From: a virus
Lineage: Duplodnaviria; Heunggongvirae; Uroviricota; Caudoviricetes
IMG/VR virus record: IMGVR_UViG_2778261544_000008
Direction: 5' to 3' (one strand)
Length of the DNA: 11,300 nucleotides
Made by a program: the position numbers and the translations under genes. How positions within the stretch are numbered: the first letter of the stretch is position 1; each line of letters opens with the position of its first letter. Below the pieces are notes generated by a model, which worked only from the letters and a program-made list of their open reading frames with translations, was not told the origin of the DNA and searched no databases. Below are positions 1 through 11,300 of the stretch, in pieces.

Positions 1-249
1 ATGCGCACACAGGTTGTATTGCAAAAATGGGGTAACAGCATTGCCCTTCGACTAACGGGAAACCTTAAAACCGTTCCGGGTTTTTCAGTGGGTGATATCG
101 TCAACGTTGAAATTAGTGAAAAAGGGCTTTTTGTAGAAAAGCCTGCACGCCGTCGCCTGAGTGAAGCCGAACTACTCGCCGGGATAACGCCAGTTACAGC
201 GCACGCTGACGAAATTGCCATCCCATTCAATGAGGAGGTTGATTACTGA
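1..249 (+). CDS. Type II antitoxin, MazE/PemI/ChpS-like (AbrB/SpoVT-type)
   Basis: 82-aa ORF starting MRTQVVLQKWGNSIALRL, which matches the MazE/ChpS N-terminal pattern (K-WGNS-A-R-P). Its stop (TGA 247-249) overlaps the ATG of the next ORF by 1 nt, the usual antitoxin-toxin arrangement. Promoter lies outside the window. Confidence 0.7.
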   Translation: MRTQVVLQKWGNSIALRLTGNLKTVPGFSVGDIVNVEISEKGLFVEKPARRRLSEAELLAGITPVTAHADEIAIPFNEEVDY

Positions 250-593
250 TGTTTGTACCTAAGCGTGGTGATATTTGCTGGCTGGATTTTGAGCCGCAGA
301 AAGGAAAAGAGATCGGAAAGTATCGCCCGGCACTCATACTATCCCATGAGCAATATAACCGACTCACCGGGCTTGTCATATGCTGCCCCATAAGTACGAG
401 CATACGAAATGCTCCCACAGAAGTTCCGGTAACAAATCTGGACGCCCCCAGCGTGGTAGCAACCACACTCATTCAAACCCTTGACTGGCGTCAGCGGAAA
501 GCGCGCTTAATCACAGAGGCAGAAGATGGGGTATTTAATGATGTGCTTGAAAGAGTCATAACCCTGATTGGTGGAGAGCATCTGCTTAAGTAA
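249..593 (+). CDS. Type II toxin, MazF/PemK/ChpB-family endoribonuclease
   Basis: 114-aa ORF with the RGDI-W-DF-P-KG-E----RPA-IL N-terminal signature of the MazF/PemK fold. Translationally coupled to the upstream antitoxin-like ORF. Confidence 0.8.
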   Translation: MFVPKRGDICWLDFEPQKGKEIGKYRPALILSHEQYNRLTGLVICCPISTSIRNAPTEVPVTNLDAPSVVATTLIQTLDWRQRKARLITEAEDGVFNDVLERVITLIGGEHLLK

Positions 594-596
594 AAG

Positions 597-614
597 GAGG
601 GCTGAGAAGCCCTC
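597..614 (-). terminator. Stem-loop between convergent genes, probable terminator for the capsid gene
   Basis: 7-bp perfect stem (597-603 / 608-614) with a 4-nt loop. On the minus strand it is followed by CTTTTA. It sits between the plus-strand toxin stop (593) and the minus-strand capsid stop (637). Confidence 0.35.
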
Positions 615-636: not shown

Positions 637-1908
637 CTATTCTTTCCAGTCAATCCCATCCAGTAAGCACCCTGCCTCATATTGCCCCACCACCCAGTCA
701 AGGTTACAGGACTCATAGAACGCGAGGCGATTATACTGAGGCTCGTTTTTTACCAGGCCACGAACGGAACCACGCTGCCAGTACAGACACAGATTGGCAA
801 GAGGTGTGATCAATACAGCATTGTCCGGGAAAAATGGAACGGTCACAGCCGGGAGATTCCCCAGAACGGGATTTTTAATGATTTCCTCGTTAAGCAAAAT
901 TTCCTGATTCATCTGCGATGGATCAAGACGGTTTATCAAAGGCCATTGCTTACGGACCAGCGTATTGTGACTGCATACGGCCACAATGCCTTCCTGCCAC
1001 TGTTCATCAATCATGGATTGCCAGGCATCCAGAACGAGCGCATCTATCGTATGGTGTGTACCGCGTGTATTACTTTTCGGTGATGAAACAGAAAGGCCGC
1101 TGATAACCCTTCCCGCCGCTTCATTTCGAAACTTCTGCAACCAACCCACGCCGCAATCGTCACGCCCCGGATATGTTTCAGGGTCAGATTCGGCGGCATA
1201 ATGTGTGCCGTTAAAACCAATCTGAATTAAATCCAGCCATTTCCGGCGTTCAAAAGCGGCCCGCGCACTTCCTTCAAGGCCGTTTGCGGATGCGTGAGCA
1301 TCGGCATTGTCGTAGCTCAACGCAAAATCAAAATTAACCTGCTCGCAGCGGTAGCCCCTTGAAACCAGTGAATGCGCCTGTAGTGGCGAACGGCGCTCGT
1401 GAGGTGGCGATGTGCGTGCCAACGGCCCCGAAGCGTCTACCAGCACAACCCGACCTGATATATCCGTAACAGGCACGGGAGTTATTTCAGCAAGGAAATT
1501 TGCCTGCCATCCACTGGCAAGCGTTGCACTCTGGCGGGGAACGGGTTCAACTTCTGACGAATAGCGCGCAGTGTCACCGGAAAAGTGCAAATCCTTCGGA
1601 TGTTTTCCGGTTATCGACTCGATAGCGCAATTGAAAACCATCTGAGCCTGTTGATTTCGTTGTGATACAACAGAATCAGCAGTGCAATTATAACGCTCAA
1701 TGCCGTCGTTATTACCCCCACCGCTTGCAGTATGCAGGGTGTGAAGCTCAAGCTCACGCTCCAGTTTTTGATATTCATTGTCCAGCGCGCGACGCGTCTC
1801 ATCGCTTATGCTTGCTGTGTTTGCTTTCAGGCGATTCCGGGACATTAATCCCCTGAGTCGGCTCACTATATCAGCGCCGTGCAAATGTGGAGTATTCAGA
1901 CCGCCCAT
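637..1908 (-). CDS. Major capsid protein, P2 gpN-like; start codon uncertain
   Basis: Several blocks match my recollection of P2 gpN: CEQVNFDF, IGFNG, VGWLQKFRNEAAGRVIS, IDALVLDA, LGNLPAVTVPFFPDNAVLITPLANL, YESCNLDWVVGQYEAGCL. The homologous region begins near the ATG at 1641-1639. The frame is open up to 2085. An ATG at 1908-1906 overlaps the upstream ORF's stop as TAATG. Confidence 0.75.
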   Translation of the reverse strand: MGGLNTPHLHGADIVSRLRGLMSRNRLKANTASISDETRRALDNEYQKLERELELHTLHTASGGGNNDGIERYNCTADSVVSQRNQQAQMVFNCAIESITGKHPKDLHFSGDTARYSSEVEPVPRQSATLASGWQANFLAEITPVPVTDISGRVVLVDASGPLARTSPPHERRSPLQAHSLVSRGYRCEQVNFDFALSYDNADAHASANGLEGSARAAFERRKWLDLIQIGFNGTHYAAESDPETYPGRDDCGVGWLQKFRNEAAGRVISGLSVSSPKSNTRGTHHTIDALVLDAWQSMIDEQWQEGIVAVCSHNTLVRKQWPLINRLDPSQMNQEILLNEEIIKNPVLGNLPAVTVPFFPDNAVLITPLANLCLYWQRGSVRGLVKNEPQYNRLAFYESCNLDWVVGQYEAGCLLDGIDWKE

Positions 1909-2618
1909 TACTGCCACCCCCGGCAGAGTTCTCTGCCCTCCGCAAGGTCGCGCATTTTTTCTGGATTCTGTCGCGCCGCGCTCCATTGTACAGGTGAAGG
2001 GGCGTTCCTGATTGCGCGGCTTACCGAATCCGGGAGTTTCTCCGGGCAATAACGCAGCGGGCTGGAGGTGTCGCTTTCGGTATCGTTAATCCGGCCGCGA
2101 ATCATCCCGACACTTTCAGCAGTATCTGTCGCTTTCAGTGTTTCGCATATTTTCTTTTCTGCGTTATACAGCGGCTGGCCAAGCAGCTCACATAAACCAC
2201 GAATCAATAACAGAGCAGGGGTCAGCTCGTTAATCAGTTCGGGAAGTGCTTTTGCAAATATCTCTGCCCGCAACTTATTATCAATGCTTTCGTAAGCACA
2301 ACCAGCCTCTGCCGCGTTATAACGACACTCCAGTAGCCTGATGCGCGCCTCATCATGCAGCACCCGCAGACGCTCAAGATTTTCTCGCGCCACACCCGCC
2401 TGAATGGATAATTTCGCGGAGGCTTCCGTTTTTACGCCCAGCGCAGACAGGATTGAGTTCTGCCAGTCACGATCGAGAGATTCCAGCTCCCCTTTCGTCT
2501 GTTCGATAGTTGCTTCCAGATTGGTGATTAATGATTCCTGTTCACTGAGTTTTGCCATGGCTGCATCAAACTGTGCTTTACATACCTGATGTTCGGCGCT
2601 TGCCTGAGTTATATCCAT
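1908..2618 (-). CDS. Helical or coiled-coil protein, candidate capsid scaffold (Sid/gpO-like role)
   Basis: 236-aa ORF with a good SD (CAGGAGcaaatATG). The N-terminal two thirds are heptad-like and helical. It lies immediately upstream of, and overlaps, the capsid gene. Its last ~45 codons overlap the capsid-frame ORF and look low-complexity. Confidence 0.5.
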   Translation of the reverse strand: MDITQASAEHQVCKAQFDAAMAKLSEQESLITNLEATIEQTKGELESLDRDWQNSILSALGVKTEASAKLSIQAGVARENLERLRVLHDEARIRLLECRYNAAEAGCAYESIDNKLRAEIFAKALPELINELTPALLLIRGLCELLGQPLYNAEKKICETLKATDTAESVGMIRGRINDTESDTSSPLRYCPEKLPDSVSRAIRNAPSPVQWSAARQNPEKMRDLAEGRELCRGWQ

Positions 2619-2783
2619 TATTTGCTCCTGTAATACATTTTTTTACTTACGCCGATTTTTTCCATATTGCGTAATACATTCCAGCCGATTTTGTTCTCGT
2701 AATACGCTCACAATACTGTTGTATTACGCTTTCTTATATCGCGGGTGTTAAATCCCGGCATAAACAATCAGGGAGGCAACACG
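2619..2783. promoter_or_regulatory. Divergent promoter/operator region with clustered GTA(A/T)TAC palindromes
   Basis: 165-bp intergenic region between the minus-strand scaffold-like gene and the plus-strand RHH-like gene. It holds four copies of GTAATAC/GTATTAC (2630, 2671, 2699, 2721) and a 2-unit direct repeat gccgatttt...cgtaatac. One copy abuts the SD of the scaffold-like gene. Confidence 0.5.
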
Positions 2784-3017
2784 ATGAAAAAACAAAAGAA
2801 AATGCGATGCGTATTACGCTGTATTCGTATCCCGCACGAAATCGACCATAAAATAAATCAGATATGTCAGGACAGAGAGATGAACTACTCCCAGTGCGTC
2901 AGAATGTTTATCAGTCAGGGAATTAAGGCCGGGGAAACGCAGGAAGAAGACTGCAACGGGCGCAATGTAGCGGGGGATGTGTGGGCCTGGGCAAATGACC
3001 AGAACCACACGACGTAA
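2784..3017 (+). CDS. Small DNA-binding protein, ribbon-helix-helix-like (putative repressor)
   Basis: 77-aa ORF with a strong SD (GGGAGG, 7-nt spacing). The N-terminus has a beta-strand then two helices (MRCVLRCIRIP-HEIDHKINQICQDRE-MNYSQ-CVRMFISQGIK), typical of CopG/Arc-type RHH proteins. Divergent from the capsid operon. Confidence 0.45.
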   Translation: MKKQKKMRCVLRCIRIPHEIDHKINQICQDREMNYSQCVRMFISQGIKAGETQEEDCNGRNVAGDVWAWANDQNHTT

Positions 3018-3067
3018 TACAGAAATAACGCAGCCGGTCACACTCGCTGGCTGTGTTATACAAATCA

Positions 3068-3250
3068 CTATGAAGTTTTCGACTTCCTGCGCTTAGTAAT
3101 GCGTACAAACGACTCAAGCGTACAAAAACAAGCCCCACACTCAATATTATTGCACTGGTAATACGTTCTGTAGATGTTTTGTTCGTGTTCTTCCAACGAA
3201 CGACCACGGGTGCGGGCTGAAGCGCCACAGGCCGGGCAAGGGAAAGACAT
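3068..3250 (-). CDS. ogr: Ogr/Delta-family zinc-finger late-gene transcription activator
   Basis: 60-aa ORF MSFPCPACGASARTRGRS...YYQCNNIECGACFCTLESF. The C-x2-C-x22-C-x4-C spacing and flanking residues match P2 Ogr (MFHCPLC...HQCQNVNCSATFITYES). SD GAGGAG lies upstream. Confidence 0.85.
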   Translation of the reverse strand: MSFPCPACGASARTRGRSLEEHEQNIYRTYYQCNNIECGACFCTLESFVRITKRRKSKTS

Positions 3251-3613
3251 ATCACGCTCCTCTTACTGGTGTGAAATTTAACCTATTATATCTTCTGCCG
3301 CCCCCCTCTGGCTGTATCAAATAAACCCGCAGCAGTCGCCGCGTATTACGCACGGGCGCGCCGTTCCCATGCTCACTCGTCACATTCCCCGTATCAGTTC
3401 TCTCTTGCCGTAAGAACGGCTCTGGCTGGCGATAAAACTAACCCGGTCGGGGCATTCCCGCAGCCTTTAGCGAAAATGTAATTTACCCCCTGAAACGCGT
3501 GCTGTTCCCCCGTCACCTGCGCGCGAAAAACTCACCGTTTTTTGTGCACGCACGAAATCGCCCTCCGGGCGCGCCAGTACTTGGCCGGATGGGCAAAAAG
3601 TTACTCTAAAAAA

Positions 3614-3643
3614 TTGTGCAAATTTGTGCACTTTTGTGCAGAT
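3614..3643. repeat. Three direct TTGTGCA repeats at exact 10-bp phasing
   Basis: TTGTGCAAAT / TTGTGCACTT / TTGTGCAGAT starting at 3614, 3624 and 3634, in non-coding DNA upstream of the Ogr-like gene. Confidence 0.5.
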
Positions 3644-3862
3644 GAACAATAGCGTCAAAAAGAGTGCTTTTGAGAAATTTTTTATGGCAACTGCGCCGCG
3701 TGTATTACGTTTTTTACCATCCCCGCCGCGCATGTACATGCTTCATTTTTCTGCCAAACAACAGGGCAACTCCCCGTGACTGGCAGCCCCAAAAAATCAA
3801 TGATTGATATTGCATTTTTGTTAGAGGTTAGACCAGTTGTTTTGAGGCTCTGCCTCATAATC

Positions 3863-4185
3863 CGGTGGGGGGTGCGCAAAGCGGTTACAACGGTTACAAC
3901 AGTCAAAAACACCACTTAACAGCATGATTTTAATGGATATTGTTTGTAACCGCTTTGCGGTTACACTGCGGTTACAACGGTTACAGGTTTCAGAAAGTTA
4001 TTTATTATCAATCAGTTAAAAACTTAACTTGTAACCGCCTGTAACCTAACAAAACGGTTACATGTAACCGCGTTGTAACCGCTTTTGTAACTCATCGGAC
4101 CAGCTGCAATGTATTGATATATAATATAAAAATGAGTAATTTTAAATTTGTAACCGTTGTAACCGCTTTGCGCAACCCCCCCCGG
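3863..4185. repeat. Iteron array (TGTAACCG/CGGTTACA) with flanking inverted repeat; putative replication origin
   Basis: At least 13 full copies of the 8-mer in ~285 bp. The left half is mostly CGGTTACA, the right half mostly TGTAACCG, around an AT-rich centre. Outer arms 3874-3899 and 4148-4173 are exact reverse complements (26 bp). Embedded palindromes GTAACCGCtttGCGGTTAC and CGGTTACATGTAACCG. An AT-rich stretch lies at 4100-4150. Confidence 0.55.
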
Positions 4186-4380
4186 ACTTTAGCGCGACCC
4201 TTTAAAATGTTAATTAAACTAACTTATTCCGTCTCACTTTCATTAACTCTCTGTAATTGAAATGTGCCTCGCCACTGTTTGACCCTTTCTGATAATCAGG
4301 GGAGGGAGAGCAAAAAAAATTGATGGCGACACCGCTGCAATATGGCCACCATTGCATTGCTGTTACCGTTGGTTCTGGCC

Positions 4381-4438: not shown

Positions 4439-5440
4439 TTACTCTGCTGGTTCTTTTTGTTCAGTGAATGCTATGTTAGCTATCGGGTTAAACCTCATGG
4501 CATCTGCCAGATAGTCGGGAGAAAAATGCGCATAAGTCATCGTTTGCTGAATAGTGGCATGGCCCAGAATCCGTTGCAGGGTAACGATGTTTCCCCCGTT
4601 CATCATGAAATGCGTGGCGAACGTATGACGCATCACATGAGTCGCCTGCCCTTTTGGCAAATCAGGCTTCACCTCCTGGAGGATCTCGCGAAACCGGAGA
4701 TAATCGACCTCGTACAGCGGCCCAGTTCGGCAGGTTTTAATCAGCGAGAGCACGGCATCAGACACCGGAACCGAACGGGACTTCCCGTTCTTGGTGTTGA
4801 AGAACGTCACGCGATTACCGACGATATGCTCCCCGCGTAATTCCGTCGCCTCACCCCACCGCGCCCCCGTGGAGAGACACAGAATGGCGACACGACGCGC
4901 ATCACCTTCGAGTCGCTCAAGAAGCCGCTCAATCTCATCATCAGAAAGAAAGGCCATCTCTGTATTCTGAATTTTTAGCTTACGTATACTGCGCACGGGG
5001 TTCGGGTTGTGAAAGACCCCTGCTTCAATCAACACCGTGAACATGGTAGACAGAACGCATAAGTCACGATTAATACTGGACGGCATTAATCCGGCCTGTA
5101 ATTTCTCTGACCGATACTCAAGCATAAATTTTCGCGTCATCTGGTTGGCGCGCGGATCTCCCATTTCACGAATCACTTTCTCCAGCCGGATCCTGTAGGT
5201 ATCGCCGTAAGCCTGATTACACCCGTCAAGCATCCACCATGTATCAAGCAACTCTGATAATCGCCGCCGATCAGCAGGTTTAGCTAGCCATGGGTTATTA
5301 TGGAAATTCTGCAAAACATATTGTTCGAACTTCTCTGCACTTCCTTTCCTGGTAAAAATTTTACGTATCCGTTTGCCGTATGTCCCTTGCGGCCTGATAT
5401 CTAGCAACCATCTTCCATCATCCATCTTTCTGATCGACAT
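4439..5440 (-). CDS. int: Tyrosine recombinase, P2-type integrase
   Basis: Strong similarity along the whole length to my recollection of P2 Int (MSIRKMDDGRWLLDIRPQG..., ILCLSTGARWGEA, ATHVMRHTFATHF, LQRILGHATIQQTMTYAHF, giving the catalytic R, H-x-x-R and Y). Start taken at ATG 5440 (SD AAGGAG upstream), not the upstream in-frame ATG at 5476. Confidence 0.9.
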   Translation of the reverse strand: MSIRKMDDGRWLLDIRPQGTYGKRIRKIFTRKGSAEKFEQYVLQNFHNNPWLAKPADRRRLSELLDTWWMLDGCNQAYGDTYRIRLEKVIREMGDPRANQMTRKFMLEYRSEKLQAGLMPSSINRDLCVLSTMFTVLIEAGVFHNPNPVRSIRKLKIQNTEMAFLSDDEIERLLERLEGDARRVAILCLSTGARWGEATELRGEHIVGNRVTFFNTKNGKSRSVPVSDAVLSLIKTCRTGPLYEVDYLRFREILQEVKPDLPKGQATHVMRHTFATHFMMNGGNIVTLQRILGHATIQQTMTYAHFSPDYLADAMRFNPIANIAFTEQKEPAE

Positions 5441-5442
5441 AC

Positions 5443-8112
5443 TTAAGATCTCTCCTTGTAACTGAATATCCGGCATTTCAGCACTTCCGGCTCTCTGGCC
5501 TCGGCTACTCCTTTTCCGGCGTTTGCCTGTCTGGACACCTCACTACGAATGGTTTTGCGGCCTGTCAAAGGTCGGGAACGCCCGGCTCCGAGCAGCTCAA
5601 TCATTTCGCGATCTGTTCTGATCTCCACGCGGTGAATGGCGGCAGCCTGTGCCAGTTGCGGAATGCTGATAGCAATCCCTTCGCGGCATCCCTTGCCGTA
5701 GTGGTTTACGCCGTATTTTGTTATGCCGTCCAGGAAGTCGAACGCCTCCCAGAACTCCGTCACTTCCGGCAAGTCAGCCGCCGCCGCTTTAACCTGCGCT
5801 GTTGCCATTTGTTCCAGTTCCAGACATGTGGCATCAAGCCATTCATCCGGGATATCAATAACGCATTTCAGCGCCCTGACCAGCGCGATAAGTTGTGCGT
5901 GATTTTTGGCGATGCGGGGATGGCGAATATTTTCGCATCCGCAAAGGCGTTCCGTTTCAGCTGGCGACACTTCCAGGAACGTTTGCATAATCGCCCGTTC
6001 CTGACTTACCGCCCGGTGAATAAAACCCGATACCTTCTCGACGGGGTAGAGTTCCAGCCGTCTCGCCGCCAGTCGGGTATCTGGTGAATGGCGTTTTTTA
6101 TCGGTGTATATGCGTATCAGGCGCTCAATAATTGCCGGTGAGGCGTTTACCCGCGCATTCTGTGCAATCACGATAGCGCCCTTAAAATCCGGATCATAGG
6201 TGTTGTTATTGTTGGCCTTAACACCACGAACACCGATACCGCCGCCGTTATAGAGGCTTTTCAGGTTATCGAAATCAAACGCACCTCTTTTTTGCGCATT
6301 GTCTCCCCGGTCTGCTTCAATCAGAACAACAGGCAATCCGGCGACCTGTCCAAAGGTGCGCTTCCAGCCCGCTTCTGATCCTTTGGTTGGATCAACGCCT
6401 TCGTAGTTGTCACGACCGCACAGCCGCCAGCAAAAATCAATCAATGTTGATTTACCCGTTCCGGGTTCCCCAGTGACTTCAAGGAAAGGGAAGGATTCTT
6501 CTTTATCCCGGATTTGTTCACTGAACAGCGACCCCAGCCAGAAAGCCAGGGTAATAATTCCCTTTTCGCCAAAAGCCAGCCAGAGATCTTCTACCCATGA
6601 CGTTGTAAATTCATCCGTTTTTTTGTAGTTAATCTGTAATGTGGGTTTTTCGCTTAATGGTTTTGCGTTTATGCCATCAATTTCAAAATAATCTTCGTCA
6701 TTGATTTCATAAGTTTTACCCTTGTAAACAGCAATATCATTAAACAGCCATGCCCCAATGGCCTTGTTGTATCCGATAAAATCCTGACCAATAACCTCTT
6801 TTATTGCAGGAAGGTCATTTTTTATTAATGCGTCAAGCTGCGTAGTCGTTCCGGTATAAATGCCGCCTTTTGCTACGTGCAACAGACGTTTTTTAAATTC
6901 AGATGCGGATGTTAATTGCCCTGATGTAAAGGTGTTTTTCACCGTAGCACCATCCGGGAATGTAATGCGGAAGTAATACCATGCTTCATCCGTATCATTG
7001 TTTCGAATGTAATAAAGCGGCACTGGGTTACAGTTTGCGATTTCTTTTACAGCGCCGGATTCCTTGAGTGCAATTTTGCGCGCTTCATCTTCGTCAACAT
7101 TTCGCTCATTAATGACACGCTCAACAGCCTTCATATGGCGCTCAATATCCAGCTTGAACCAGAAAACACGGTTATCAAAGGGAAAATGAAATTCCTTTCG
7201 CTCACGAAAGGAAAACATTATTAGTGCCTTATCTCGTGGAGATTTCGCCAGCAATAAATCACCGTAATAACGGTATCTTTTCACATCATGGCCACGCAGC
7301 TTTCCGGCGACGTGTAAATCATTCCAGTCGCGTTTATTGTTGTTTTTCCCTGGTAACGCCGCTGCCGTTCTCCAGCCGTCTTCGGCGCTGCGTTCTGCAT
7401 GTTTTTTCGCGTAACGCTCACCTGCACGCCCGTTATCCAGCGCCCACACGATAACCGGACGGGGATTATCCCCGCACAGCTTCGCCAGCTCTTCCAGCGC
7501 CTTATCAGGGTAGTTCACGGCAGACATGACAGAAACGGCCGCAATGCCATTCTGGTTAAGACTGATGGCATCAAAGATACCCTCACAAATCCAGATTTCT
7601 TTGGCCTTGCTTAAATCTGCTCCTGGATAAGCCCACCACAGCCCCTTGTAGCTGCCGGAAAAATTCGCCTTGCGTCCGAAGCGTTCCGGGCGATCTATGA
7701 TTCGCTCCCACCACACACCGTCAGCCAGCGTAAAACGCACAGTAGCGGCCTGTTCGCCGCTTTCCTTGTCCTGGTATCGCTCCTGGGTAAATGCTCCCCT
7801 CAGTGGCTCCACAGCAATATTGCGTGCTTCCTGAAGATAAGCTGCCGCCGCTGCGTATGGTTCATCTTTCGTACTGATATAGCGATCTGACCATGATGAA
7901 AACACATCCGGGTAAAGTTCTTTAGTCAGCAGGTCTACACCGCATTTATTTTCACGCCCGCAGTGTACGATGTACGGCCTTTCAAGGCTGGTAAACAACT
8001 CTTTCTTTCCACATTGCGGACAAACACCATACCGGAGGTAGTTATTTTCTTCTTTAAAGTTGTAATCACGAATAAGACGGTTAATAATCTCTTTTCTGGT
8101 GTTATGTTTCAT
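5443..8112 (-). CDS. Primase-helicase, P4 alpha-like (zinc ribbon + TOPRIM primase + P-loop helicase)
   Basis: N-terminal zinc-binding CPQCGKK...HCGRENKC, a TOPRIM-like segment EIWICEGIFDAISL...WALDNGRAG, and Walker A VTGEPGTGKST with a downstream VVLIEAD. ATG at 8112 is preferred; an in-frame GTG at 8130 is possible. The stop is 2 nt before the int start. Confidence 0.9.
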   Translation of the reverse strand: MKHNTRKEIINRLIRDYNFKEENNYLRYGVCPQCGKKELFTSLERPYIVHCGRENKCGVDLLTKELYPDVFSSWSDRYISTKDEPYAAAAAYLQEARNIAVEPLRGAFTQERYQDKESGEQAATVRFTLADGVWWERIIDRPERFGRKANFSGSYKGLWWAYPGADLSKAKEIWICEGIFDAISLNQNGIAAVSVMSAVNYPDKALEELAKLCGDNPRPVIVWALDNGRAGERYAKKHAERSAEDGWRTAAALPGKNNNKRDWNDLHVAGKLRGHDVKRYRYYGDLLLAKSPRDKALIMFSFRERKEFHFPFDNRVFWFKLDIERHMKAVERVINERNVDEDEARKIALKESGAVKEIANCNPVPLYYIRNNDTDEAWYYFRITFPDGATVKNTFTSGQLTSASEFKKRLLHVAKGGIYTGTTTQLDALIKNDLPAIKEVIGQDFIGYNKAIGAWLFNDIAVYKGKTYEINDEDYFEIDGINAKPLSEKPTLQINYKKTDEFTTSWVEDLWLAFGEKGIITLAFWLGSLFSEQIRDKEESFPFLEVTGEPGTGKSTLIDFCWRLCGRDNYEGVDPTKGSEAGWKRTFGQVAGLPVVLIEADRGDNAQKRGAFDFDNLKSLYNGGGIGVRGVKANNNNTYDPDFKGAIVIAQNARVNASPAIIERLIRIYTDKKRHSPDTRLAARRLELYPVEKVSGFIHRAVSQERAIMQTFLEVSPAETERLCGCENIRHPRIAKNHAQLIALVRALKCVIDIPDEWLDATCLELEQMATAQVKAAAADLPEVTEFWEAFDFLDGITKYGVNHYGKGCREGIAISIPQLAQAAAIHRVEIRTDREMIELLGAGRSRPLTGRKTIRSEVSRQANAGKGVAEAREPEVLKCRIFSYKERS

Positions 8113-8124
8113 ATATAAATCCCC

Positions 8125-8149
8125 CCCCACTGCACCTTTTGCAGTGGGG
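8125..8149. promoter_or_regulatory. Perfect 9-bp stem-loop just upstream of the primase start; attenuator or terminator-like
   Basis: CCCCACTGC-acctttt-GCAGTGGGG. On the plus strand it is followed by TTTTTATTAATT; on the minus strand it precedes the primase SD. It lies in the 43-nt gap between the 101-aa ORF and the primase gene. Confidence 0.4.
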
Positions 8150-8934: not shown

Positions 8935-9117
8935 TTACCCCTCCATGATTTTTACTGCGCATTTGTGGGTTAATCGCCCCTGTTTGTCATTGCGGGAATA
9001 TGCCATACGACAGGCATCACGCCATGCATCGTCATAAGTCGGATATTCCCAGGAATGAATCATCTGGCGAACGTCGCCGTTCTGGTAGTTAATCAGAGTG
9101 ATAAGGAGCTTAAACAT
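8935..9117 (-). CDS. Hypothetical small protein, 60 aa
   Basis: Start chosen at ATG 9117 with SD GGGAGG. It begins 5-8 nt inside the end of the Icd-like ORF. Confidence 0.45.
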   Translation of the reverse strand: MFKLLITLINYQNGDVRQMIHSWEYPTYDDAWRDACRMAYSRNDKQGRLTHKCAVKIMEG

Positions 9118-9283
9118 GGCACGCCTCCCGGACACGGATACGAGCAACAAAGACCAGACGGGATGCCGGAAGCATGGCGCGCGCTTCGCGCTCACTGGCA
9201 GCGGTAACGGTATGAAGGCGAATATTTTTACCGTGGCACTGCATAAAGCGCCAGATAAAATCAGGGCGTGTTGATATAGCCAT
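9110..9283 (-). CDS. Icd-like small protein (P4-type immunity-region ORF)
   Basis: 57-aa ORF starting at ATG 9283 with SD GAGGAG (MAISTRPDFIWRFMQCHGKNIRLHTVTAASEREARAMLP...). It resembles small proteins annotated as Icd-like in P4-type elements, by recollection only. The longer 175-aa frame upstream has no SD. Confidence 0.4.
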   Translation of the reverse strand: MAISTRPDFIWRFMQCHGKNIRLHTVTAASEREARAMLPASRLVFVARIRVREACHV

Positions 9284-9535
9284 TTTGGCGGCTCCTCTAA
9301 CTGATTTACGGAGTCTCGCCAGCACGCTGCTAAACATGGTGGCGGGACGTAACAGGGTTAGCAGACTGGCGTTAGAGAAACCAGCGAGCGCAAAGGCTCC
9401 CCCATTACGCCCCGCCATAATACGGGGTAGGGTGGAATTACGGGCACAAAAAAACCGCATTACGGAAATATAGCGGCTACCCGCTCTAACAATCAGGCTG
9501 CTAAACCCGGCACCTGTTTTATGAGGTGCGGGCAA

Positions 9536-9565
9536 ACGATACGCCATGACAAAAAAGCGAGTCAA
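9536..9565 (-). promoter_or_regulatory. Candidate sigma70 promoter for the minus-strand early operon
   Basis: On the minus strand: TTGACT (9565-9560), 18-nt spacer, TATCGT (9541-9536). It would start a long leader (~240 nt) before the first SD-equipped ORF at 9283. Confidence 0.3.
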
Positions 9566-9699
9566 GAAAAATTGCAAATTATTTTGGCGATATTGCGCTG
9601 ACTTATTGATTTTTAAGAGTAAAAAAGTCATTATCATTTCTGCCTATTGTTTCTTATTGTTGGTTTCAGGTGCATTAAATGCACATCCTTGACTGGTTG

Positions 9700-9831: not shown

Positions 9832-10152
9832 TTATTCAACTCTGGCGCTACCGGATTCCCTCTCCCTTTTCTTTTTGGCGTTTTCGTATGGGTTATTCAC
9901 TTTGGCAATAACTGGCGGATTACGCAGCCACCACAAAACATCACTTAACAGCCAGGTACATGAGCAACGCCCCAAAGAGTGACGGGGAGGAAAAGCACCG
10001 ATCTTCTCCAGTTCCCAGCGCCGGGAGCGTGAAAGCGTGGTCATCTTTTTACACTTCTCTTCCCTGATGCGTTCTTCGCAGTCAAAACCATACTCGGCGA
10101 GTATGGTGCGGCGCTGTTCTGGAGTTGGTGGAATGAATGCGGATTGAGTCAT
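9832..10152 (-). CDS. alpA: AlpA/Vis-family DNA-binding regulator (excisionase-like HTH)
   Basis: 106-aa ORF with SD GGGGGA. The central segment LSRSRRWELEKIGAFPPRHSLGRCSCTWLLSDVLWWL fits the AlpA/Vis pattern (LSRST-YR...G-FP-...LG-R-V-W...V--W). Confidence 0.6.
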   Translation of the reverse strand: MTQSAFIPPTPEQRRTILAEYGFDCEERIREEKCKKMTTLSRSRRWELEKIGAFPPRHSLGRCSCTWLLSDVLWWLRNPPVIAKVNNPYENAKKKRERESGSARVE

Positions 10153-10247: not shown

Positions 10248-11300
10248 TTACTGAGATGATGCCTTAATCCATCTTGATATAGTACTTTTATCAAAGCGCA
10301 TATTGAGTCCTGCCTCTCTTGCTTCCGCGGTCAATATATCAGCAAGTTTTACCGGATTGTTTTCGAGTTCTTTATAATGAATAACAAGCATCGCACGAAA
10401 AAAATCCTTCATTGTTTTAGATAATCGTTCTATATTGTTTTTATTGGTGCATATATCTTTCTCCCCATCCTCAGAACTTAATATATTGTTACCCGCACGC
10501 AAATATAAAGTATCTGCCAATGGACTAACATAATCTTTTCTTAACTCGCTATTGGAGTTTGTAGCATTTTGTATTTTTAAAAAATCATTCTTTAAGATAT
10601 ATAAATCACCAATATCAAAAGAAACATCCTCAGTAACAATTACTCCTATATGTATATCAACGTCAGAAGCAATTATAATATTGCTATTAATTATTCGGTT
10701 GGCTTTAAACTTCTTATTAAAATCATAGTTGGCAAAAAAACTTCCCCCCAAAGCGAAAATGCCGCCTATTTCAACAAAATACTTATGGTATTTTTCTTGA
10801 ATACCTTTAAATACTGGTGGTACAACTGCCACACCTCTTTCATCCGTTGCTATTCGATATACACTATATATGTGATAATTTTCCCCATAATATAACCCCC
10901 TGTTATAATAATTTAACAAAGCAAATGCAGTATCAATTGCTATGTCACCAAATTTGGGCGCTACATATGAATGGCTTAGAGATTCACACATTGAATCAAA
11001 TATAATTCTCGACTTGTTTTTTATATAATTAAAACCATGGTGTTCTGCCGCCCTTTCTGAAATGGCATCAAGGTCAGATAACCGTGATTTACATGGTTCT
11101 GAATCCATAAACTTACGCAGACAATCGAAATTAACCACATCTTTTTCATCTGGGATATTTAATACTCCATATGCAGATTCAATTTTTATACAAATACGAA
11201 TGCAGCCTGTCACAGCCCAATGAATAAGATCATCAATATCGCAGTCTAATAACTTTGCCGCGCGCTCAATAGGATAGTAATCTCTTAGTGGTAACGTCAT
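10248..11300 (-). CDS. Hypothetical protein, 350 aa, strongly AT-rich cargo gene with HTH-like termini
   Basis: Uninterrupted 1053-nt ORF whose ATG is the last three bases of the window. Composition is far more AT-rich than the neighbouring alpA and primase genes. The N-terminus (IERAAKLLDCDIDDLIHWAVTG) and C-terminus (LADILTAEAREAGLNMRFDKSTISRWIK) look HTH-like. The central domain is unrecognised. Confidence 0.65.
   Translation of the reverse strand: MTLPLRDYYPIERAAKLLDCDIDDLIHWAVTGCIRICIKIESAYGVLNIPDEKDVVNFDCLRKFMDSEPCKSRLSDLDAISERAAEHHGFNYIKNKSRIIFDSMCESLSHSYVAPKFGDIAIDTAFALLNYYNRGLYYGENYHIYSVYRIATDERGVAVVPPVFKGIQEKYHKYFVEIGGIFALGGSFFANYDFNKKFKANRIINSNIIIASDVDIHIGVIVTEDVSFDIGDLYILKNDFLKIQNATNSNSELRKDYVSPLADTLYLRAGNNILSSEDGEKDICTNKNNIERLSKTMKDFFRAMLVIHYKELENNPVKLADILTAEAREAGLNMRFDKSTISRWIKASSQ

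Follow-up and report, generated by a model that had tools for sequence, protein, structure and literature searches.

P4 is the textbook phage satellite, an element without a capsid gene that reshapes the capsid of its helper. P4-like satellites are recognised in SatelliteFinder through seven core components, namely int, psu, delta, sid, alpA, ash/epsilon and alpha (PMC10085698). In the assembly of P4 heads, dimers of Sid bridge hexamers of the P2 capsid protein gpN, trimerise and impose T=4; gpN is bound by the C-terminal helix of Sid, and the contact on gpN is made at the 'sir loop' (gpN 183-224) (PMC7552001). Phage-inducible chromosomal islands of the capsid-forming kind (cfPICIs) carry genes for capsid, portal, protease, head-tail adaptor and connector, TerS and TerL, and take only tails (PMC10085698). 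SaPIbov5 of Staphylococcus aureus is a cos-site satellite that encodes a homologue of the helper capsid protein, termed Ccm, and makes small T=4 heads (PMC8569155). Here we describe a stretch of 11,300 nucleotides from the IMG/VR virus record IMGVR_UViG_2778261544_000008 (Caudoviricetes), the whole of which is called the window below. Judged from its gene content and from a longer copy, the window is most of an integrated P4-kind satellite of Escherichia coli of about 13 kb, which carries a gpN-family capsid gene next to a gene for a Sid-like protein. On balance we favour the view that this P4-like satellite builds small heads out of its own capsid protein with the Sid-like scaffold, a P88-like helper phage providing portal, terminase and tail.

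Like P4, the element measures 11-13 kb and has an arm-binding integrase, AlpA, a C4 (CI-type) RNA with an Icd-like open reading frame (ORF), a primase-helicase with an iteron origin, an Ogr/Delta protein, a Sid-family protein and a cos copied from a Peduoviridae helper, and it is without portal, terminase or tail genes. Unlike P4, it owns a gpN-family capsid gene, arranged in the order ogr, Sid-like, capsid; its Sid is only remotely related, its primase-helicase is of a different family, a second, internal tyrosine recombinase is present, and its cos lies between the origin and ogr, whereas the P4 cos is next to psu. The likely helper is also of the P88 type and not P2. Of the P4-like components, the integrase with its attachment (att) repeats, Delta/Ogr, AlpA and a remote Sid were found, together with a cos of the Peduoviridae-helper kind whose match is to P88-type phages and not to the P2 cos. 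BLASTP with P4 Psu returned no match among the ORFs of the island and of 14 related loci. For ash/epsilon, the small ORFs of the window gave no Pfam match and this copy no BLASTP match to P4 epsilon; among relatives, epsilon was identified in locus L006 (31% identity) and in L020, L022 and L024 (44-48%), and L015 and L016 carry Phage_ASH.

Like a cfPICI, the element has its own HK97-fold capsid gene and, as far as its sequence tells, needs a helper for the remaining parts of the virion. Unlike cfPICIs, the island has only a capsid and an external scaffold, the capsid is of the P2 family, and the backbone is P4-like rather than PICI-like. The portal, protease, connectors, TerS and TerL of cfPICIs were found neither in the island nor in nine related loci, which places it outside the cfPICI definition. 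With SaPIbov5 it has in common a cos site and a homologue of a helper capsid protein; the phylum and the helper are unrelated, and Ccm occupies pentamers only and works without a Sid-type external scaffold.

The two genes at the centre of the analysis are the following.

637..1908, minus strand: major capsid protein of the P2 gpN family, 423 amino acids, ATG at 1908-1906
1908..2618, minus strand: Sid-like protein, 236 amino acids, all-helical, presumed external size-determining scaffold

An earlier note on this DNA, made from the letters alone, had proposed a capsid gene matching P2 gpN with a scaffold-like gene beside it, and both ORFs were recovered on the minus strand. The capsid protein matched Pfam family PF05125 (E 3.3e-72, 243.8 bits against a cut-off of 27), phrog_70 (E 1.6e-76) and the chain of the solved gpN structure, 7jw1_A (E 1.3e-54). 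BLASTP aligned it with P2 gpN at 34% identity (E 7e-67 over gpN residues 3-340), and identity to the P88 capsid was 35%. By these matches the protein is a true gpN homologue, beyond chance. Its score of 133.6 bits against the NCBIfam equivalog TIGR01551 was under the cut-off of 219.65, which, given the strong PF05125 match, fits a divergent subfamily. The length given in the note, 424 amino acids, is one too many: the ORF is real, and the start used here, which is also that of RefSeq, yields 423. The longest ORF in this frame (TTG at 2049, 470 amino acids) is not likely to be the gene. The capsid ATG overlaps the TAA stop of the upstream gene by one base (TAATG), from which we take the two genes to be translationally coupled; the Sid-like gene is itself preceded by a strong AGGAG site.

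Compared with P2 gpN (PDB 7jw1), the satellite capsid has about 85 additional N-terminal residues, a shorter and different sir loop, and no gpO or gpM flanks. The N-terminal extension is specific to the clade. It opens with the conserved motif xF..RIK.LI.RN...SPE.R..LE.EN.KLE.EL, which is followed by a variable linker rich in Gly, Ser, Asn and Pro. In two E. coli capsid homologues of 474-497 amino acids (P0035 and P0037), the linker is enlarged by Ser/Pro-rich tandem repeats, and its length therefore appears free to vary. A relationship of the extension to gpO was rejected by BLASTP and by profile comparison. The region aligned with the sir loop is seven residues shorter than in gpN and carries substitutions; V268, G271, S273 and V274 are invariant in the clade, and residues fixed there depart from those of phages, so that RVISGLSV stands where P2 has RVMSKVTD. 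The N-terminus of gpN is processed by 31 residues (PMC7552001), and in our reading of the alignment a conserved VEP motif of the satellite capsid falls just after the part corresponding to these residues. Between two E. coli variants, the capsid body differed by 21 synonymous and 7 non-synonymous changes, a pattern of purifying selection.

The relationship of the 236-amino-acid protein to Sid was less direct. A word-indexed search with this protein returned near-identical E. coli proteins only, and an exhaustive HMMER search was needed to obtain 20 representatives, most of them 236-276 amino acids long, the full-length ones of which were aligned. Nine of 15 members of the family matched phrog_6165 (best E 1.9e-6), whose annotation is given to both sid and psu in the P4 record. 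The family profile reached 58.6% probability against a single Sid sequence and, by hhalign against an alignment of 18 Sid proteins, 87.8% (E 3.3e-6 over 139 columns). AlphaFold2 gave the protein an entirely helical model with a long hairpin stem (mean predicted local distance difference test score, pLDDT, 93.3), and when Foldseek compared this model with 350,542 PDB chains the top two matches were Sid (7jw1_E) and Psu (3rx6). The match to 7jw1_E, which is Sid in the P4 procapsid, had a probability of 0.99 and a TM score of 0.50 over 242 columns.

Each of these scores is modest singly, as is usual for coiled coils; taken together, they make it likely that the protein is a remote Sid homologue. 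Two other assignments were rejected by profile comparison, as a gpO-like internal scaffold (hhalign probability 0.1%) and as a Psu-like protein (0.2%). The profile searches that the note had suggested against gpN, gpO, Sid and Psu thus placed the larger protein in the gpN family and the smaller one with Sid; of its description of a helical scaffold-like product, the helices held, and the scaffold appears to be a remote relative of the external Sid, with no similarity to gpO. A standard Sid profile would probably miss this protein. Conservation within the family is highest in the C-terminal tail, in which P207 and S208 are invariant and Q211, L225 and G228 nearly so. A likeness by eye between the tails of Sid (TPxQ...LKARG) and of the Sid-like proteins (SPxQ...CRG) was not used as evidence, since hhalign on the tails gave 0.13%.

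The borders of the element were obtained from E. coli NCTC9082, which holds a copy with 92.5% identity that shows the whole element, between hpt and gcd. There, the island is 12,952 bp long between 24-bp direct repeats, CATTACTTCTACA(TA/GT)ATGTTTCAT. The left one of these is the very beginning of hpt, which indicates that the island entered the 5' end of hpt and rebuilt the gene. Paired ATTGATACAC repeats lie near both ends of the island. At the gcd end, to the right of the window, is a 399-amino-acid integrase (Arm-DNA-bind_3 and Phage_integrase domains, with a P4-type arm-binding domain). Portal, terminase, gpO, gpM, gpL, tail and lysis genes were searched for in the island through Pfam, PHROGs, RefSeq annotation and BLASTP with reference proteins, and none was found. 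The element is therefore not a P2 prophage; of the head module of P2-like prophages (Q-P and O-N-M-L) with its tail and lysis genes, only an N homologue is in the island. The earlier note held that its reading of a satellite with its own P2-fold capsid would fail if the capsid match were not significant or if a complete P2-like prophage enclosed the pair. The match proved strong and no complete P2 prophage lies around the pair; the flanks revealed att-type repeats and a cos-like region, and neither portal nor terminase.

The Sid-like protein has relatives of about 25-33% identity that are encoded next to a PF05125 gene in other small islands with an integrase (L006/L007, L008 and L009), and capsid relatives from Klebsiella (L015) and a further E. 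coli lineage (L016) had the same overall layout. The two genes adjoin, or have one small ORF between them, in relatives in which the identity of the Sid-like protein falls to about 24-30%. We then used the capsid alignment to scan one genome per species and annotated the 24 loci obtained with reference proteins and a hidden Markov model of the Sid-like family. Nine of them had a capsid identity of at least 43%; they came from Escherichia, two Klebsiella species, Enterobacter, Izhakiella, Kluyvera, Candidatus Erwinia dacicola, Apirhabdus and one mis-binned contig of a metagenome-assembled genome. All nine have Ogr, the ribbon-helix-helix (RHH)-like ORF, the Sid-like gene and the capsid gene, most also have the primase and the internal recombinase, and several have AlpA or epsilon. 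No portal, TerL, gpO, gpM or gpL homologue was found within 10 kb of these nine. The other 15, at 29-38% capsid identity, all showed the canonical phage head module and were without a Sid-like gene. The combination of Ogr, Sid-like and capsid genes was thus present in every related small island examined, in at least eight Enterobacterales genera, and the synteny comparison that the note had asked for shows the module recurring with the same replication and integration genes.

The capsid sequences separate in the same manner. Database matches fell into one group with 41-52% identity (269-389 bits, mostly 393-497 amino acids, with the N-terminal extension) from Escherichia, Salmonella, Klebsiella, Erwinia, Pectobacterium and Symbiopectobacterium, and a second group of ordinary P2-family proteins (at most 202 bits, about 335-410 amino acids). 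A neighbour-joining tree of 30 capsid proteins set 14 Sid-linked capsids, including those of L008 and L009, which are both without the extension, apart from 16 phage capsids in 100 of 100 bootstraps. With neighbour-joining as the only method, a simple one, and with limited sampling, the tree argues for an old, single association of Sid and capsid and not for repeated prophage decay.

The note had offered as its alternative a rearranged remnant of a P2-like prophage fused to a P4-like module. In a decayed prophage of this kind, the pair would be functionless leftover O and N genes. The genes are of phage origin, and RefSeq names the product 'P2 family phage major capsid protein', which such a remnant would share. 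The upstream gene is not gpO, however, the module and its gene order are kept across genera down to 24-45% protein identity, and the capsids form their own branch instead of nesting among local phages. The module was found in 57 of 5426 complete E. coli genomes (about 1%), always at 95% identity or more, and was full-length in 56 of the 57; many of these genomes are porcine enterotoxigenic or Shiga toxin-producing strains. In strain P15-25 (NZ_CP080233.1) the identity is 100%. Given these intact copies and the excess of synonymous changes in the capsid body, we consider a decayed prophage very improbable, and the 12.95-kb island with its 24-bp repeats, its lack of other head and tail genes, its recurring module and its separate capsid branch bears out the satellite interpretation instead.

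The 19-mer of the P2/P4 cos had no match in the window at up to three mismatches, and BLASTN of whole P4 against the window returned nothing; the cos region was found only through similarity to P88-like phages.

3475..3641, minus strand: cos-like packaging region of some 165 bp, about 80% identical to P88-like non-coding DNA
3517..3499, minus strand: cos core GGTGACGGGGGAACAGCAC, agreeing with the P2/P4 cohesive end GGCGAGGCGGGGAAAGCAC at 14 of 19 bases

The region matches non-coding DNA of P88, vB_EcoM-569R5, 500465-2, Chuche, PhiR44_2 and Shae_phiSM, and the annotation of P88, 569R5 and 500465-2 puts the match just 3' of the portal gene, the same place as the P2 cos. The orientation of GGTGACGGGGGAACAGCAC relative to the portal gene is also that of the P2/P4 cohesive end, and three TTGTGCA repeats lie at about 3610-3640. 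In 11 satellites and six phages or prophages, GCGCGCAGGTGACGGGGG was invariant or nearly so, and the flanks varied by host. The E. coli satellite and P88 have GCGTTTCAGGGGGTAAAT in common; for the Klebsiella satellites the counterpart is GGGGGGC..GCCCCCGCAA, present also in a K. spallanzanii prophage (L026), which comes from the same isolate, SB6411, as one satellite (L018). When the satellite Ogr was searched by tblastn, the top matches, at 50.9% identity, were P88, 500465-2, Chuche and PhiR44_2. P88-like terminase and portal genes were present in 1122 of 5426 E. coli genomes, and strain JP538 (NZ_AP025180.1) holds both the satellite module and a P88-like prophage. P88 came from a porcine K88 strain, a niche in which the satellite is common. 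The ratio of satellite to helper length is 0.34-0.36, against 0.346 for P4 and P2. From the cos and Ogr similarities and the two co-occurrences, the helper is likely a P88-like member of the Peduoviridae (Xuanwuvirus/Gemsvirus).

The cos site also bears on a purely antagonistic role, in which the capsid homologue and the Sid-like protein would poison helper head assembly and protect the host population while the satellite itself is poorly packaged. Interference with helpers is common among satellites and the island carries MazEF cargo, both of which suit such a role, but a helper-matched cos conserved in 11 satellites serves the element's own packaging and not pure defence. A replication module and an integrase flanked by att repeats are likewise conserved, a form that is circular or concatemeric was found, and neither the capsid nor the Sid-like protein has a PADLOC match; interference alone is accordingly an improbable explanation. 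The circular or concatemeric form is seen in a metagenome contig of 12,723 bp (L022), which has a terminal redundancy of 507 bp and in which the capsid gene runs into the integrase gene, giving a unit of 12,207 bp, as expected of an excised circle or concatemer. A second contig (L024) is permuted in the same way.

At positions 12,700-12,723, contig L022 ends inside the cos core (…GGTGACGGGGGGACAG), followed by nine bases like the Nextera mosaic end. Either a natural DNA end at cos or an artefact of assembly could account for this, and it was judged too uncertain to be counted as a mapped cos end.

Comparison of sequences establishes the gene identities, the borders, the absence of the other head and tail genes, the cos similarity, the conservation of the module and the separate capsid lineage; from these we infer every functional step, the T number and the positions in the capsid filled by satellite protein. 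In the course of events that we favour, the P4-type integrase and AlpA would release the island from hpt, in whose 5' end it sits, the primase-helicase would replicate it from the GGTTACA iteron origin, and the Ogr/Delta protein would activate the late genes. The coupled pair, the Sid-like external scaffold and the satellite's own gpN-type capsid protein, would then be expressed and assemble into a small shell, probably T=4, sized for a genome of 12-13 kb. Shells of P4 size have been reported to form from gpN and Sid when gpO is absent. From the helper the satellite would obtain its portal, gpO protease, terminase, head completion proteins and tail, and the helper terminase would recognise the satellite cos as a copy of its own. 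Possession of a capsid protein would free the satellite from the helper capsid, including 'sir'-type escape mutations of the helper. More speculatively, the two-helix N-terminal extension may act as a tethered internal scaffold that is cut off by the helper protease near the VEP motif.

A serious alternative is a mixed shell, in which satellite and helper capsid proteins co-assemble, for example in pentamers or in Sid-bound hexamers, and the Sid-like protein forces the small size. There is precedent in the cos-type SaPIbov5, whose Ccm fills the pentamers of T=4 procapsids (PMC8569155). A satellite that has neither a portal nor a protease gene still needs helper head proteins, and all of the sequence evidence for satellite status fits co-assembly equally well. 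A common lattice is made less likely, though possible, by the 34-35% identity to the P2 and P88 capsids and by the long separation of the lineage, and the fact that the satellite has a Sid partner of its own suggests that the pair is self-contained. We therefore place co-assembly well behind a shell built from the satellite protein, as something to be reckoned with but not expected.

Several observations weigh against a whole shell made by the satellite pair. The relationship to Sid is remote: the window protein itself scored weakly as a single sequence against phrog_6165 (E 0.013), the family profile did so against the PDB Sid sequence (E 0.15), and the Foldseek match to Sid had an E of only 0.05; coiled-coil proteins are prone to spurious matches. 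As the tails of Sid and of the Sid-like proteins fail to align, binding of the satellite capsid by the Sid-like protein can be proposed only by analogy. The AlphaFold2 model of the capsid, built from 19 sequences, was poor (mean pLDDT 49.9), and in it the motif was the sole part of the extension predicted as two helices (pLDDT 66-78). Within the extension, the two E. coli variants differed by 13 synonymous and 15 non-synonymous changes, which indicates weak purifying selection. The element, at 12.95 kb, is about 11% longer than P4, and a canonical P2 late-promoter dyad (TGT-N12-ACA) was not found near or upstream of the Sid-like/capsid operon.

A P4-like element with a capsid gene was not mentioned in the full-text literature searched, which takes in few subscription journals but includes the principal surveys on satellite families and on P4-like satellites (PMC8628076, PMC10085698, PMC13586616, PMC13612085, PMC7552001). 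It is about an even prospect that we are dealing with a widespread, undescribed lineage of P4-like satellites in the Enterobacterales that builds its whole small capsid from its own gpN-type protein, co-evolved with its own Sid-type cage, and takes only portal, protease, terminase and tail from P88-like helpers. If this is true, the lineage would be intermediate between P4, with no head proteins of its own, and cfPICIs, with the full set; a shell protein and a size-determining cage alone would constitute a third design. It would also give the satellite a route to immunity against capsid escape mutations of the helper. A naturally co-evolving pair of Sid and capsid could be used to study how capsid size is set, and it bears on the origin of Sid and Psu as well as on satellite escape from helper counter-mutations. 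Current satellite finders seek Psu and a canonical Sid, and perhaps read capsid genes as signs of a prophage; they could therefore overlook or wrongly classify this lineage, which occurs in about 1% of complete E. coli genomes as well as in Klebsiella, Enterobacter, Kluyvera, Erwinia and other genera.

The remaining features of the island were mapped to identify their location. Read from the integrase end, it contains the 350-amino-acid protein, AlpA, the Icd-like ORF with C4 and isrK, small ORFs, the primase-helicase, the second tyrosine recombinase, the iteron origin, the cos-like region, Ogr/Delta, the divergent RHH-like ORF, the Sid-like gene, the capsid gene, a terminator-like hairpin and MazEF. 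Within the window, these features are as follows.

1-249, plus strand: MazE-like antitoxin (RefSeq name)
249-593, plus strand: MazF/PemK toxin (PF02452, E 4.3e-25; RefSeq name)
597..614, minus strand: terminator-like hairpin with a T run just past the capsid stop, from a consensus scan, putative in function
2670..2818: presumed divergent promoter/operator region between the Sid-like and RHH-like genes, with four CGTAATAC copies
2784..3017, plus strand: 77-amino-acid ORF with CopG/RelB (RHH) similarity from weak matches only, divergent from the Sid-like gene
3068..3250, minus strand: Ogr/Delta-type zinc-finger late activator, 60 amino acids (PF04606, E 3.3e-11)
3861..4186: iteron-rich presumed replication origin with 13 GGTTACA copies in both orientations
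4439..5476, minus strand: second, internal tyrosine recombinase (Int_N and Phage_integrase domains), likely start giving about 333 amino acids at 4439-5440
5443..8130, minus strand: primase-helicase (zinc ribbon, Toprim, P-loop), ORF of 895 amino acids, 889 from the likely start
9110..9637, minus strand: P4-type immunity region with the Icd-like ORF, 175 amino acids (NF033153, E 2.3e-14)
9335-9422, minus strand: C4 (CI-type) antisense RNA (RF01695, 72.9 bits)
9448-9529, minus strand: isrK (RF01394, 52.2 bits)
9832..10152, minus strand: AlpA-family regulator/excisionase, 106 amino acids (PF05930, E 3.3e-7; phrog_2790, E 4.6e-30)
10248..11300, minus strand: 350-amino-acid protein between AlpA and the P4-type integrase

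The P4-type neighbours that the note had listed, AlpA, the Icd-like leader, Ogr/Delta and a Toprim primase-helicase, are all present, and only the likeness of the last to P4 alpha is weak. Its best family is phrog_1139 (992 bits), with Toprim_2 at E 6.7e-13, and it matched P4 alpha in short stretches only (best E 2e-4), while architecture and position are alike. It is the putative functional counterpart of P4 alpha, from a different family. The internal recombinase follows directly after the primase gene and has 51-59% identity to those of the relatives in Klebsiella, Izhakiella, Kluyvera, Erwinia and E. coli; multimer resolution and a second integration system are candidate roles. GGTTACA occurs 15 times in the window against 1.15 expected, with 13 of the 15 copies inside the presumed origin, where a 39-nt inverted repeat (95% complementary) brackets them and an AT-rich centre, a neat layout for an origin that would serve the uncharacterised family phrog_1139. 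Because C4 and isrK lie inside the Icd-like ORF, this ORF is probably mostly leader RNA and not protein.

The octamer CGTAATAC has seven copies in the window where 0.3 would be expected, and all seven fall in a stretch of about 1 kb (2670-3709); besides the four copies between the Sid-like and RHH-like genes, one stands before ogr and one beside cos. A function as the site of the helper Ogr was rejected, as the octamer is absent from the O/P late-promoter region of P88 and from most related satellites, and it is probably an operator specific to this lineage. The RHH-like ORF keeps its position across related islands at 33-41% identity. The 350-amino-acid protein, encoded by DNA of 31-41% GC, had no match in Pfam, PHROGs, NCBIfam or PADLOC, and in L022-L024 the place between integrase and AlpA is likewise taken by homologues, with 31-32% identity. 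One of the small islands, L009, encodes at 249-554 a protein of 101 amino acids that resembles the N-terminus of the terminase gpP (PF06056) and is absent from the lineage of the window; it may be a packaging-redirection factor. The MazEF genes lie as cargo between the terminator of the capsid gene and the left att site. In related islands this slot is filled by Gp49/HTH (HigBA-like) genes or by hok, which suggests a cargo hotspot resembling that described for P4.

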